Positions 874 to 5,503 are shown, numbered from the stretch's first letter. The stretch is 26,098 bases of DNA from Planctomycetota bacterium (GCA_014382465.1 JACNJP010000224.1:9560-35657); one strand, 5' to 3'. Notes: generated from the sequence alone by a model not told the origin. A program made the numbers and translations.

Positions 874-3060
874 TCACTGCGAGAGGATCACGACCGAGTA
901 GGGGCCGACGCCGATGTCGCCGGTGTAGGGCATGCCGTCGCGGCCCTGGTTGAGGGCCGTGAAGTCCAGGCTCGGGTGGTCGCCGAAGGCGGGGTCGTAG
1001 CCGCTCCAATCGCTGTTGAAGCGCACGCGCCAGGTGCCGCCGCGGGGGACGCCGAAGAGGTAGCTGGGATAGGAGCGGTTGGCCATGTTGACGACGACGA
1101 TCACGTCGTCGCCGGCGCCGCCCTGGTCCCAGCGGTGGAACACCACCACCTTGTCGTTGTCGTTGACGTGGTGGACGTTCACGCCCTGGCCCTTGAGCCC
1201 GGCTGTGTCGTCGTTCCAGTCGCGCCGCAGCCGGATCAGGTCGCGGTAGAGGTCGTGGATGCCGGCGAAGGTGGTGAGCTTGTTCCAGTCGACCGGGTCG
1301 GTGTCGGAGAAGAAGCCGTCTTCGAGGATCTCCTGGCCCTGGAAGATCATCGGCACACCGGGGCTGGTCATGACCAACGCGGCGCCGAGGGTGCTGCGCT
1401 TCTTGGAGTACCAGCTCGCGGCGTTGCCGGGCCAGATCTCCTCGGGGACGCGCGACTTGCCGTTGGCGACCTCGTCGTGCGACTCGGTGTAGATCACGCG
1501 TTGGGTGGCGTCGCCGTTGTAGTTGTGCGTGATGGCGTCGCGCACCGACCACATGTCGCGGTTGTTGTCGTTGGGGTCGATGATCGCGGCGCGGACCGGG
1601 TGGACGAACTCGGCGTCCCACTGGCTGTCGAAGCCTGCGCCGCCGGCGCTGGTCGGCCTGGTGATCCAGGCGTTGTTCCACATGTCCTCGGCGATGTTGA
1701 TCTTCCAGCCCTGCGAGGCGTCGATGTCGTCGTTGATCCACTGCAGCAGCGACCAGGCCTCGGGGATGTCGCCGAGCGGGCCGTTGCGCATGTAGGAGGT
1801 CGAGTCCCAGCGCAGGCCGTCGGCGCGGTAGTCCGAGAGCCAGTTCATGGCGTTGTCGCGGATGTATTGGCGGACCTCGGGGCGGCTGTAGTCGGGGCGG
1901 GTGTCGCCCCACGGCGTCTGGGCGCGGACGTCGTTGTAGAAGTAGATGCCGCCGTAGCCGCCGGCCGACCAGCCGTCGAACTGCCACAGGTCGAGGTCGC
2001 CCGGGCCGTAGTGGTTGTGGATGAGGTCGAGCACCACGGCGATGCCGTGCTCGTGGGCGTCCCTGATGAAGCCCTTGAGGCCCTCCGGGCCGCCGTAGTG
2101 GCTCTCCACCGCCCACGGCTGGGACGGGTTGTAGCCCCACGAGTAGTTGCCGGGGAACTCCATCACCGGCATCAGCTCGATGACGTTGACGCCGAGGTCC
2201 TGGAGGTAGGCCAGCTTCTGCCGCGCGCTGGCGAAGGTCCCGGGCTGGCCGCCGGGCTGGTCGTTGAAGGTGCCGGCGTGCAGCTCGTAAACGACCATGT
2301 CGTTCCACGCCGGGGTGCTCCAGCTCTGGGTGCCCCAGTCGAAGTCTTGGTGGTCGTAGACCACGGTGTCGCCGACCGAGCTGGTGACGCGGTGGGCGCG
2401 CGGGTCGTTGCGCCACTGGGTGAAGGCGCCGGTGTCGATGACGTACTGGTACTCGGCGCCGGGGGTGACGTTGCGGACGTCGATCGACCAGTTGCCGTTG
2501 CCCTCGCCGACCAGCGGGTTGAGGCTCGACGACCAGTTGTTGAAGCTGCCGGCGATCGTGACCGCGGCGGCGTTCGGCGCCCACACCCGGAAGGCGGTGC
2601 CGGCGGCGCCCGGGACCGGCGACGGGTAGGGGTTCGCGCCCATGCCGTCGTGCTGCGACGGGATCAGCTCGCGGCCGTAGCTGATCTGGTACTGGGTGCC
2701 CTCGGGCCGCCAGACGCCGACGTGCCAGGTGCCGCTGGTCAGGACCGCGGCGGTCTGGCCGTTGAGGACGATGCTCTCGTCGCTGGTGCCCGGGACCGCG
2801 GAGCGGGCGTCGAAGCTGGTGTGGCTCGGACGCCTGGCCTTGCGCAGATAGAGGTCGGCGCCGCCGCCGGAGACCTGGGTGGTGGCGACGCGGATCTGCG
2901 GGTCGCCGTCCCACACCGTGAATTGGTAGTGGTCCCAGCCCGCCTTGGCCGGCGGCGCCGGAGCCAGGGGCTGCCGCGGGCTGACCTGCTGGGCGGACAG
3001 CGTCCCCGCGAAGAGCAGGAGCAGGCTGAGGGGCAGGCGGGGGAAGCGGATCGAGGCCAT
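874..3060 (-). CDS. Secreted GH13 alpha-amylase-family enzyme (signal peptide + PPC-like domain + CBM48 + GH13 catalytic domain; branching-enzyme/TreZ-like)
   Basis: CBM48 motif FRVWAPNA..AGSFNNW; GH13 motifs VYELHAGTF, IELMPV, WGYNP, DLIHNH, GLRWD (nucleophile), IAED (acid/base), ESHDE. Start moved to ATG 3060, which gives the signal peptide MASIRFPRLPLSLLLLFAGTLSA. N-terminal GADLYLR..DESI..GTWHVGV resembles a PPC domain. Confidence 0.92.
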   Translation of the reverse strand: MASIRFPRLPLSLLLLFAGTLSAQQVSPRQPLAPAPPAKAGWDHYQFTVWDGDPQIRVATTQVSGGGADLYLRKARRPSHTSFDARSAVPGTSDESIVLNGQTAAVLTSGTWHVGVWRPEGTQYQISYGRELIPSQHDGMGANPYPSPVPGAAGTAFRVWAPNAAAVTIAGSFNNWSSSLNPLVGEGNGNWSIDVRNVTPGAEYQYVIDTGAFTQWRNDPRAHRVTSSVGDTVVYDHQDFDWGTQSWSTPAWNDMVVYELHAGTFNDQPGGQPGTFASARQKLAYLQDLGVNVIELMPVMEFPGNYSWGYNPSQPWAVESHYGGPEGLKGFIRDAHEHGIAVVLDLIHNHYGPGDLDLWQFDGWSAGGYGGIYFYNDVRAQTPWGDTRPDYSRPEVRQYIRDNAMNWLSDYRADGLRWDSTSYMRNGPLGDIPEAWSLLQWINDDIDASQGWKINIAEDMWNNAWITRPTSAGGAGFDSQWDAEFVHPVRAAIIDPNDNNRDMWSVRDAITHNYNGDATQRVIYTESHDEVANGKSRVPEEIWPGNAASWYSKKRSTLGAALVMTSPGVPMIFQGQEILEDGFFSDTDPVDWNKLTTFAGIHDLYRDLIRLRRDWNDDTAGLKGQGVNVHHVNDNDKVVVFHRWDQGGAGDDVIVVVNMANRSYPSYLFGVPRGGTWRVRFNSDWSGYDPAFGDHPSLDFTALNQGRDGMPYTGDIGVGPYSVVILSQ

Positions 3061-3120
3061 GGGGGGTCCGCGGACGAAGGTCGATGCTAACGGAAAGCCG
3101 GGGGTTTGAGGGGGTCCTTT

Positions 3121-3142
3121 TGAAATTTGCCCCAAGATTTCA
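3121..3142. promoter_or_regulatory. Palindromic candidate operator TGAAAT-N10-ATTTCA in the divergent promoter region
   Basis: Perfect 6-bp inverted repeat in an AT-rich island. It is flanked by -10-like hexamers TAGCAT (minus strand, 3089-3084) and TATTCT (plus strand, 3173-3178) at 31 and 30 nt. Confidence 0.55.
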
Positions 3143-3287
3143 TTAAGCCGTGGCGCGCGGCTCGTGAAGTCCTATTCTACCCAGGAACAAGCCTCCCGGC
3201 TTGGCTCCCGCCGCCGTCCGGCCGCCTTCTGGGCCCCCCAGGGCCAGAGACTTGCCTTTCCCGGTCCTTGGGCCGACATTCACCCCC

Positions 3288-4148
3288 ATGCCTCTGGAAA
3301 TCGTCGATCAGGGCGAAGGACGCTGGCTGGTCACCTTCCGCTACCGCTCCCCCGGCCCTGCCGCCGAACCGCGGCGGCGCCCGGTCAGCCTGGCGGGGAC
3401 CTTCAACGACTGGGACCCTGGAGCCACCCCGATGGCCCTGGAGGCCGCCGGGGAGTGGTGGACGGTCACGCTGGACCTGCCGGAGGGGGAGCACCTCTAC
3501 AAGTTCGTCCTCGACGAGGAGGAGTGGGAGCCCGATCCGGACAACCCCGCCACCCTGGAGGACGCCTTCCTCGGCACCAACTCGGTGCTGGAGCTGGGCC
3601 GCCTGGCCGGCCGGCTGCCGTCGCTGTCGGTGGAGAGCGACCACCAGTGGCGGGCGGTGACCTCGCCGCGCCGGCTCGAGATCATGGAATTCCTGCTCTC
3701 GGCCGCCCCGTGCTCGGTCGCCGCGCTCGCCGAGGTCATGGACGCCGCCGCCGACGGCCTCTACCACCACCTTCGCATCCTGCGCAAGGCCGGGCTGGTC
3801 CGCGAGGTCGGCAAGGTCGACGTCGCCGGCCGCGCGGTGCCGGTCTTCGACGTCGTCGCCCGCGAGCTGCGCTTCCTCGGCACGGAGGACCCCGAGCGCC
3901 TGGTCGCCCTGTGGCGCTGCCTCGGCCGCCGCGCCACCCGCATGCTCCAGGCCGCCGGCGACCCCGGAGAGACCCGCCTCTCCCTCCGCTCCGACACCGG
4001 CTGGCTCGACGACGAGATGTTCGGCAAGGTCCGCAAGCACCTGCTCCACATCCACCGCATCTTCGCCGAAGGCCGCCAAAGCCGCGTCGGCTCCCTCTAC
4101 TCCCTCACCCACCTCCTCTCCCCCATCGAGAGGTCGAGACGCAATTAG
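3288..4148 (+). CDS. CBM48 (AMPK-beta-like glycogen-binding) domain fused to an ArsR-like winged HTH; putative transcription regulator
   Basis: N-half has VSLAGTFNDW, YKFVLDEEEW, DPDNP and GTNSVL. C-half has SPRRLEIMEFL..SVAALAEVM..GLYHHLRILRKAGLV. No TM segment or signal peptide. Start set at ATG 3288; the upstream in-frame extension is low-complexity. Confidence 0.85.
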   Translation: MPLEIVDQGEGRWLVTFRYRSPGPAAEPRRRPVSLAGTFNDWDPGATPMALEAAGEWWTVTLDLPEGEHLYKFVLDEEEWEPDPDNPATLEDAFLGTNSVLELGRLAGRLPSLSVESDHQWRAVTSPRRLEIMEFLLSAAPCSVAALAEVMDAAADGLYHHLRILRKAGLVREVGKVDVAGRAVPVFDVVARELRFLGTEDPERLVALWRCLGRRATRMLQAAGDPGETRLSLRSDTGWLDDEMFGKVRKHLLHIHRIFAEGRQSRVGSLYSLTHLLSPIERSRRN

Positions 4149-4184
4149 GGGTCAGACATCGATTGAAATGGGAGGTACGACCCC
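4143..4184. repeat. REP-like intergenic repeat arm AATTAGGGGTCAGACATCGATTG with a degenerate partner GACCCC
   Basis: 4143-4165 is identical over 23 nt to 24699-24721. GGGGTC (4148-4153) can pair with GACCCC (4179-4184). It lies between convergent genes and contains the TAG stop of the upstream gene. Confidence 0.8.
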
Positions 4185-4189
4185 GGTTT

Positions 4190-5503
4190 CTACCTGATGT
4201 AGTGGCGGGCGCGGAAGGCTAGCCAGGCGGTCTGGAGGAGGCCGCCGACGACGAAGGTGCAGACGGCGAACAGGATGCCGGTCCAGCCGCTCCAGGCGAC
4301 GCCGGCGGCCAGGCCGACGACCGCGACGATGACGTAGAGCAGCACCGCTTCGGTGATCCCGCGAGTCTTGCGCTCGTGGACCAGGACGCCCTGGAACCAG
4401 CTCTGGAGCGCCTGGTAGGCCGGCATCAGCACGGCGAAGAGGATCGCCGACGCGGCCAGCGCCGCCAGCTCGGGCCGCAGGCCGTAGACGCTGCGGAACA
4501 TCATCTCCCCGAGCGGGGTGACCGCCAGCACCGCCAGCAGTCCAGCGGTCGTGGCTCCCAGGACGTAGGCGAAGCGACGGAGGGCGCGCGCGGCGCCCGG
4601 CTCGCCGAGCAGCGCCACCACCACCTCGTTGTAGGCGAAGCCGGTCGAGCGCAGCAGGAACACCAGGCCGTGCACCGAGCTCCACACCGCCAGCGACGGC
4701 AGCGCGTCCGGCATGCGGCTCATGGCGGCCGAACCCGCCGGCTGGATCAGCAGCGTCAGCAGCGGCGTCATCGCCAGCGGCAGGTAGAAGCGGGTGAAGG
4801 AGCGGCGCGAGAGCGGCTCCTTGCCCGGCGCGGCGACGAATACCCGCTGCCGAAGCACCGGCTGCACGCACCAGCCGGCGAACACCGCCTCGGCCGTCAC
4901 CCCCGCGGCGATCGCCAGCGAGCCGACGACGATGCCCGGCCCGATCTCGAAGTACTTGCCGCCGGCCAGAAAGCCGACCACCGTCACCATGCGCACGAAG
5001 GTGCCCGCGGCCACCAGCCGCGAGCGCTCGAAGCGGATCAGCACGCCCTGCTGGAAGCGCCGGTAGGCGATCGCCGCGGTCCACGGCAGCATGATCTTCA
5101 GGCCCAGCCGCCCCGGCTCGAGCACCTCCGCCGGCGCCCCGATCCAGCCGCTGGCGACCAGGTCGTAGAGCGGCGTGAAGGCGACCGCCGCGTGCAGCAG
5201 CGTCAGCAGCCCCGAGCTCCACCACATGAAGCGGCGCACCTTGCGGTAGGCCTCGCCGTCGACGCACAGCGCGGTCGACGCCGCCAGCAGCATGATGATC
5301 GGCCCCTCCACCACCAGCGCCACCGGGAACACCACCGAGCCCCAGGCGGCCAATTGGATATCCTGGTCCGCCATGCGCGCCACGAACATCGTGAACAGCG
5401 GCGACTCGCAGCCCATCAGGCCCCAGCTCAAGGCCAGCGGGAACCACAGCCGGAAGACGCGCCCGAGCCCGACCGGTGCGCGCGGGTCAGCGGGACCGGC
5501 CAA
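4190..5503 (-). CDS. ANKH-like / MATE (MOP) superfamily multi-pass membrane transporter
   Basis: Hydrophobic protein with a two-fold internal repeat (LWFPLALSWGLMGCESPLFTMFVAR and FYLPLAMTPLLTLLIQPAGSAAMSR). The W-x-PLAL...P...FV-x-R pattern matches the ANKH/MATE repeat start as I recall it. TTG start directly abuts the purF TGA. Confidence 0.75.
   Translation of the reverse strand: MAGPADPRAPVGLGRVFRLWFPLALSWGLMGCESPLFTMFVARMADQDIQLAAWGSVVFPVALVVEGPIIMLLAASTALCVDGEAYRKVRRFMWWSSGLLTLLHAAVAFTPLYDLVASGWIGAPAEVLEPGRLGLKIMLPWTAAIAYRRFQQGVLIRFERSRLVAAGTFVRMVTVVGFLAGGKYFEIGPGIVVGSLAIAAGVTAEAVFAGWCVQPVLRQRVFVAAPGKEPLSRRSFTRFYLPLAMTPLLTLLIQPAGSAAMSRMPDALPSLAVWSSVHGLVFLLRSTGFAYNEVVVALLGEPGAARALRRFAYVLGATTAGLLAVLAVTPLGEMMFRSVYGLRPELAALAASAILFAVLMPAYQALQSWFQGVLVHERKTRGITEAVLLYVIVAVVGLAAGVAWSGWTGILFAVCTFVVGGLLQTAWLAFRARHYIR

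Follow-up and report, generated by a model that had tools for sequence, protein, structure and literature searches.

A candidate alpha-glucan-responsive one-component regulator that joins an AMPK-type CBM48 to an ArsR-like winged helix in uncultured marine Planctomycetota

The 26,098-nucleotide stretch analyzed here (the window) comes from an uncultured marine planctomycete whose metagenome-derived assembly (G000; 599 contigs, 3.55 Mb) is 75% complete. Its regulator gene lies on the plus strand at positions 3288 to 4148, where an uninterrupted frame from ATG at 3288 to TAG at 4146-4148 encodes a 286-aa protein, P0001. In this protein, a CBM48 module is followed by a short linker, an ArsR-like winged helix-turn-helix (wHTH), and a C-terminal helical domain. 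Seven full-length orthologs with 53 to 84% identity contain the same Pfam pair of CBM48 and wHTH and have the MPLEI start in common with P0001. Of the longer database entries, P0006 apparently reflects an over-long start call at an upstream start codon, and P0004 owes its extra length to a loop insertion.

An earlier note on this DNA had proposed that both domains are specified by one open reading frame, and this reading stood, with Pfam scores above the cut-offs and the same architecture in the seven orthologs. Logan contigs from runs X5, X6, and X7, which belong to three other marine metagenome studies, cover positions 3068 to 4165, 3132 to 4300, and 3275 to 4165, respectively, and differ from the window by at most two substitutions, with no indels and no joints. 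A misassembly or frameshift joining two genes, the artifact that could have mimicked a fusion, is thus ruled out by these gap-free contigs together with the seven orthologs. Run X13, labeled as metatranscriptomic, covers only 3438-3631 and 3927-4077; it was flagged as probably DNA and rejected as evidence of transcription. Inspection by eye of P0001 revealed no signal peptide and no long hydrophobic or transmembrane stretch, in agreement with the cytoplasmic location assigned to it before. CBM and HTH reside on one polypeptide that contains no phosphotransfer domain, as expected of a one-component system. The regulator stop codon is overlapped by a hairpin-forming repeat of about 37 nt (4148-4184; GGGGTC...GACCCC stem) located between two convergent genes. 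The repeat has 11 genomic copies at 0 to 3 mismatches, against 0 in a reversed control, and many unrelated metagenome contigs terminate inside it. The repeat resembles a REP-like element or a terminator, with a fold z-score of only -1.3.

Divergently from the regulator, the minus strand encodes at 874-3060 the presumed target, a secreted PPC-CBM48-GH13 enzyme of branching-enzyme/TreZ-like type according to Pfam, NCBIfam, and PDB matches, which bears out the GH13 neighbor recognized in the earlier note. Its product comprises a signal-peptide-like N terminus, PPC, CBM_48, a GH13 catalytic domain, and Alpha-amylase_C, and the four conserved GH13 regions are readable as DLIHNH, GLRWDS, AEDMW, and ESHDE. 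GlgB and TreZ are the best PDB matches, and the scores fall far under both equivalog cut-offs. This gene is the first of a four-gene secreted operon that extends past the left end of the window, where it goes on to specify a pair of secreted paralogs, each about 350 aa long, and then a secreted protein of 656 aa that has an F5/8 type C (discoidin) domain. The modeled 354-aa paralog weakly resembles lectin/glucanase-type beta-sandwiches (TM of at most 0.5). A 10-N scaffold gap (L022 9550-9559), abutting base 1 of the window and followed by a G-rich run, breaks the gene of the first of these paralogs, which is therefore not legible in full in this assembly.

Further to the left on the same contig lie an AbiEi/AbiEii pair and then a MalK-like ABC ATPase. 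The pair, an AbiEi antitoxin and an AbiEii nucleotidyltransferase toxin, occupies 4472-5901 of L022 (G000:C42), about 3.7 kb from the left end of the window, with the MalK-like ATPase on one side and the GH13 operon on the other. The orthologous loci L005, L001, and L008 have no such pair annotated. In L001 and L008, the GH13 operon is adjoined by a complete sugar ABC transporter. Elsewhere in the source genome, alpha-glucan metabolism is represented by MalQ, a glucan phosphorylase-like gene, and a GT5-like glucan synthase with a weak Pfam match (40 bits).

The N-terminal module of P0001 (residues 1-103; 3288-3596, plus strand) is an AMPK-beta-type CBM48 and a putative alpha-glucan sensor. Pfam places AMPK1_CBM (PF16561; 37.5 bits against a curated cut-off of 26.8) and CBM_48 (PF02922; 24.8 against 22.4) at residues 33-90. 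The motifs pointed out earlier, GTFNDW, YKF...W, and GTNSV, are found at residues 37-42, 71-73 with W80, and 96-100. A phmmer search of the PDB with P0001 returned the CBMs of AMPK beta1 and beta2 as top matches (1z0n, E 2.4e-7), and in the resulting alignment W42, K72, W80, L95, G96, T97, and N98 correspond to W100, K126, W133, L146, G147, T148, and N150 of AMPK beta1. The equation of these motifs with the carbohydrate-binding residues of AMPK beta is therefore confirmed. W42, K72, W80, G96, and N98 are invariant in 7/7 orthologs, and L95 and T97 are kept in 5/7, with H and K instead in the two remotest orthologs. According to a review (PMC6274970), AMPK no longer binds glycogen with W100G or K126Q, binds it less well with W133L or G147R, and escapes inhibition by glycogen when W100, W133, K126, or T148 is mutated. 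The AF2 model of P0001 (pLDDT 81, pTM 0.68) agrees with this assignment, as Foldseek superimposes the modeled CBM on 1z0n, 1z0m, and 4yef with target TM scores of 0.84 to 0.88 and an rmsd of about 1.9 A. The CBMs of AMPK/SNF1 beta (1Z0M, 1Z0N, 4YEF) hence have the fold of the P0001 module at about 30% identity, with the same glycogen-contact residues. Among unsaturated ortholog pairs, dN/dS was 0.26 to 0.31 for the CBM and 0.13 to 0.35 for the wHTH, values that indicate purifying selection on the CBM.

The closest CBM in the genome forms the N terminus of an alpha-amylase-family enzyme on contig C559 (50% identity, E 1e-19), and the NSVLxLGRLA tail is also common to both modules. This GH13 enzyme is encoded about 2 kb upstream of malQ (GH77) in a second alpha-glucan locus (L007; G000:C559:6800-10600). 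Since the nearest paralog of the regulator CBM thus belongs to an alpha-amylase-family enzyme near malQ, an alpha-glucan specificity of the regulator module gains support, and we predict that the CBM48 of P0001 binds alpha-glucan. A copy taken from the adjoining GH13 gene was considered as the source of the module and rejected, the identity being only 30% versus 50% to the C559 GH13 CBM.

The AMPK beta CBM has a second, protein-contact role in docking on the kinase lobe. The domain in P0001 might likewise sense no sugar and act as a docking or stabilizing module, with the regulator answering another signal or none. AMPK-activator complex structures (4cfe, 6c9h) are indeed among the fold matches, L95 and T97 vary in distant orthologs as noted above, and relatives that consist of the HTH and C-terminal core presumably function without a CBM. 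However, the aromatic platform and the polar glucan-binding residues are invariant, the nearest paralogous CBM is part of an alpha-amylase-family enzyme, and genomic linkage is always to alpha-glucan genes. A sugar-blind module is therefore improbable.

The CBM passes through a short linker into the regulator core. Residues 104-117 (3597-3638, plus strand), which include the first strand of this core, form the near-invariant segment NSVLELGRLAGR, almost unchanged among the CBM-fused orthologs, and the linker itself (LELGRLAGR) is short and highly conserved. The ArsR-like wHTH follows at residues 118-196 (3639-3875, plus strand) with the recognition helix ADGLYHHLRIL, as supported by HTH_20 (41.8 bits against a cut-off of 27) and HTH_5 (34.6 against 22) at residues 126-174, by invariant residues, and by Foldseek matches of this region to 4g6q and 1uly/2cwe. 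CBM-less planctomycete relatives (P0010, P0095, P0137, and others) share 35 to 47% identity over residues ~106-286, and their alignment with P0001 begins at about residue 108. W121, S126, E131, P141, C142, D156, Y159, and H160, as well as W239, G268, L270, P279, and R282, are invariant in both the fused proteins and these relatives. The context of P0095, which lies on a 1.9-kb contig, is uninformative, and the neighbors of P0137 are PSCyt/PSD1/DUF1501 genes with no glucan link. Upstream of P0137 (L020 5894-5919), a palindrome AAGATC-N10-GATCTT shows the same 6-N10-6 spacing as TGAAAT-N10-ATTTCA at the regulator locus with another sequence; it may have arisen by chance in AT-rich DNA.

Residues 197-286 (3876-4145, plus strand) constitute a C-terminal two-helix domain and the predicted dimer interface. 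This domain recurs in widespread HTH_20 proteins of 180 to 245 aa from Actinomycetota, Planctomycetota, Chloroflexota, and Bacillota, whose Atlas clusters match residues 104-286 of P0001 with TM scores of 0.64 to 0.78. Because the core from about residue 108 onward matches this CBM-less HTH_20 family, P0001 would thus represent a pre-existing planctomycete ArsR-like regulator that gained an N-terminal CBM. Homodimer prediction from a custom alignment scored 0.71 versus 0.00 for the best control and passed the threshold of the method. In calibration, 20 of 30 solved homodimers had passed this threshold, as had 1 of 23 solved monomers, counts that are only rough here given the custom alignment. 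The predicted interface comprises residues 127-153 and 195-282, mostly within the extra C-terminal domain, and leaves the CBM outside. The model thus supports a homodimer formed through the C-terminal domain, and P0001 is probably a cytoplasmic, dimeric transcription factor.

The C-terminal part of P0001 belongs to an extended ArsR-like group of the 4G6Q and PH1932 type. Kfla_6221 (4G6Q) and PH1932 (1ULY/2CWE) have the fold of residues 104-286, with a target TM of 0.66 over 175-188 columns for 4g6q. These proteins and the CBM-less planctomycete relatives share the recognition-helix residues with P0001 and, unlike it, have no N-terminal CBM. The ArsR/SmtB family has the wHTH (HTH_5, HTH_20) in common with P0001 and probably also the dimeric repressor-type scaffold acting on an inverted repeat; dimerization of P0001, unlike that of classical members, is predicted to rely mainly on the extra C-terminal domain. 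Metal-sensing ArsR proteins are characterized by a CXC motif in alpha-3 or a D/H/E site in alpha-5. Both motifs are absent from P0001 as read from its sequence, which has only APCS with the single conserved Cys142, and the NCBIfam metalloregulator model NF033788 scores 38.5 bits, under its cut-off of 55. P0001 is therefore not a classical ArsR/SmtB metal sensor.

The intergenic region at 3061-3287, aligned across the orthologous loci, would serve as the divergent promoter region of the GH13 gene and the regulator. It contains a candidate operator, the perfect palindrome TGAAAT-N10-ATTTCA (3121-3142). ArsR-type operators consist of TGAA/TTCA-like half sites comparable to this one. TTTGAAAT (3119-3126) and TTTCA (3138-3142) are invariant in 7/7 aligned orthologous intergenic regions, even in two AT-rich and otherwise unalignable spacers, and the core TGAAAT-N10-(A/T)TTTCA is kept in all orthologous spacers. 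The palindrome is the sole exact copy in the 3.55-Mb source assembly, a uniqueness that is a lower-bound statement at 75% completeness, and matches with two mismatches are about as frequent there as in the control. When the right half was relaxed to (A/T)TTTCA, the only site in G138 was the orthologous one, and G301 had the orthologous site plus two more inside coding regions. Operator searches in these three genomes (G000, G138, G301) brought out no regulon outside the local locus.

Conserved TAnnAT-type boxes flank the palindrome at a distance of 30 to 31 nt on each side, TAGCAT (3084-3089, minus strand) toward the GH13 gene and TATTCT (3173-3178, plus strand) toward the regulator. No -35 element is recognizable beside either box, and scans for sigma-70 promoters and terminators (2900-4400) and for Rfam families (3000-4300) were negative. 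The arrangement of operator and boxes appears as compatible with activation as with repression. Since the palindrome is placed some 30 nt upstream of both putative -10 boxes instead of overlapping them, and these boxes have no -35 element, the factor could be an activator. Just downstream of TATTCT, the hairpin CAAGCC-TCCC-GGCTTG (3188-3203) has a predicted RNA fold of -12.4 kcal/mol (z -2.2). In the distant ortholog locus L008, its position is taken by another palindrome, TGCCTAGG-C-CCTAGGCA, which suggests that leader structure rather than sequence is conserved.

In 8/8 ortholog loci examined, the regulator is divergent from the secreted PPC-CBM48-GH13 operon with the same downstream genes, so that the linkage of homologs to glucan genes on which the earlier note's proposal depended is found throughout. 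By itself this adjacency argues little, because selU and purF on the opposite flank are likewise syntenic among the ortholog loci and all carriers belong to one family. The fusion is rare and was found in 3 of 401 Planctomycetota genomes, all from that family, and the carriers of the orthologs are close relatives and hence not independent. More telling is G286, a genome of a sister genus in the same family (89% complete), in which neither the regulator nor the GH13 gene was found at the thresholds used. It retains selU-purF and has pilin-like genes at the spot of the missing pair. The joint absence of both beside a kept selU-purF indicates that regulator and GH13 operon behave as one module, that is, they are co-inherited.

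The palindrome might nevertheless belong to another factor, or the regulator might target genes other than the GH13 operon, with the adjacency being mere inherited synteny, as would suit a set of close kin that also keep purF/selU in place. Against this reading, G000 and G138 each contain only this one copy of the palindrome, no copy was found in the regulator-less G286 with the relaxed right half, the regulator and GH13 operon are jointly missing there beside the retained anchor, and a two-fold symmetric site suits a dimeric wHTH. We consider a foreign site or a distant target quite unlikely, even slightly more so than a sugar-blind CBM. The earlier suggestion that the protein controls the adjoining secreted glucan genes is in turn strengthened by the unique conserved palindrome and the joint absence in G286, and such control is a plausible prediction from genome sequence.

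The reading that we favor, at a rough probability of 0.45, depicts P0001 as an alpha-glucan-responsive one-component regulator acting locally on the GH13 operon, which would bind the palindrome as a homodimer, take maltodextrin as the ligand of its CBM48, and pass on the occupancy of this module through the linker. The two winged helices of the homodimer would contact TGAAAT-N10-ATTTCA between the regulator gene and an operon specifying the secreted GH13, two secreted lectin-like paralogs, and the secreted discoidin-domain protein. The GH13 enzyme would release maltodextrin outside the cell for import by the nearby MalK-type ABC system, and the N-terminal AMPK-type CBM48, the putative input domain, would then grip cytoplasmic alpha-1,4-glucan chains. 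Relayed by the short conserved linker, CBM occupancy would alter DNA binding or RNA polymerase recruitment, in either direction, and both the foraging operon and the regulator gene itself would respond to substrate. Maltodextrin is favored as the ligand because the presumed targets serve foraging and neighbor an ABC importer, an arrangement typical of classical substrate induction, and rigid coupling between CBM and wHTH is suggested by a linker that is both short and conserved. We know of no precedent for a wHTH under the allosteric control of a CBM.

A lone CBM48 typically binds short oligosaccharides weakly, which favors a polymer as the ligand and counts against this main reading. The dimer could then be titrated onto cytoplasmic glycogen granules via its two CBM48s, such that more glycogen leaves less protein on the palindrome and no small-molecule allostery is involved. 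The two CBMs of the predicted dimer lie outside the interface and could therefore engage a polymer with avidity, the CBM of AMPK binds glycogen (PMC6274970), and the GT5-like synthase, though weakly matched, together with the glucan phosphorylase-like gene and MalQ makes an internal alpha-glucan plausible. A site centered about 53 nt upstream of both presumed starts, with no -35 element, also fits an activator. There is moreover a precedent in PhaR, which binds PHB granules and can be titrated by this storage polymer (PMC12849132, PMC12542648). PhaR would be a functional analog only, without homology to P0001. It differs in the polymer bound, which for P0001 is hypothetical, and in that its targets are granule proteins and not secreted enzymes. 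Contrary to what sequestration would lead one to expect, the presumed targets of P0001 are secreted foraging proteins and not glycogen synthesis or granule proteins. In addition, support for a glycogen synthase is weak (40 bits), and the short, highly conserved linker hints at rigid coupling and not at a simple tether. Granule titration is thus rather unlikely, and doubtful to the same degree is its corollary, a direct transcriptional read-out of the glycogen store by a titrated activator, in which full stores would shut down the secretion of foraging enzymes.

Comparison with AMPK, whose style of glycogen sensing the earlier note had invoked, delimits how far the parallel extends. AMPK beta and P0001, the latter cytoplasmic by prediction, are both cytoplasmic regulatory proteins and not enzymes, and the likeness is borne out for the CBM module. 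It does not extend to kinase logic, of which there is none here; the bacterial protein has its output, a DNA-binding domain, within the same chain instead of in a kinase complex, and the C-terminal scaffold of the beta subunit is lacking. MalR of the LacI family and MalT would do the same presumed job as P0001 with unrelated domains; LacI, Peripla_BP, and MalT domains had no Pfam match in P0001. The archaeal TrmB regulators of maltose/maltodextrin metabolism likewise combine a wHTH with a sugar-binding domain and act on alpha-glucan uptake and degradation genes (PMC4158304). Unlike P0001, TrmB proteins have a sensor that is not a CBM and the reverse domain order; the two are unrelated in sequence, and no Pfam match to the TrmB family was found in P0001 at E up to 0.01.

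P0001 would be a one-component regulator whose putative input domain is of a class without precedent. The searched literature contained neither a characterized CBM48-HTH regulator nor an already characterized family of this architecture, in keeping with what the earlier note had supposed. To our knowledge, carbohydrate-binding modules are almost always attached to enzymes or extracellular sensors. If the favored reading is true, a cytoplasmic transcription factor with a CBM as input would constitute a new bacterial route of alpha-glucan sensing, different from LacI/MalR, MalT, TrmB, hybrid two-component systems, and RsgI anti-sigma factors, and would provide a case of regulatory recruitment of the AMPK-type glycogen-binding module beyond the eukaryotes. 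Should the ligand be the polymer, the way in which bacteria gauge their glycogen reserve, so far little studied, would become accessible as a question, and sequestration, if true, would amount to a glycogen counterpart of PhaR made from the module of eukaryotic AMPK. The 286-aa protein and its 22-bp operator also make a compact candidate alpha-glucan biosensor. The proposed set of regulator, operator, and target is among few such specific predictions for uncultured marine Planctomycetota.

Searches for other fusions covered several collections. A library of representatives at 50% identity contained only one other full-length representative of the fusion, and no full-length match to P0001 was found among the AFDB clusters. 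An Atlas feature search returned only CBM-only clusters, at 0.77, under the useful range. A word-indexed search with the CBM region covered only 406 scored candidates. None of ten short tandem-CBM proteins from the representative search had an HTH. The same representative search uncovered AMPK-type CBM48 modules in tandem, in 2 to 18 copies, in thousands of bacterial proteins (P0024-P0170). Many of these have four copies in about 480 aa, and thioredoxin-like, peroxiredoxin, or S8 peptidase domains are attached to the modules in some of them.
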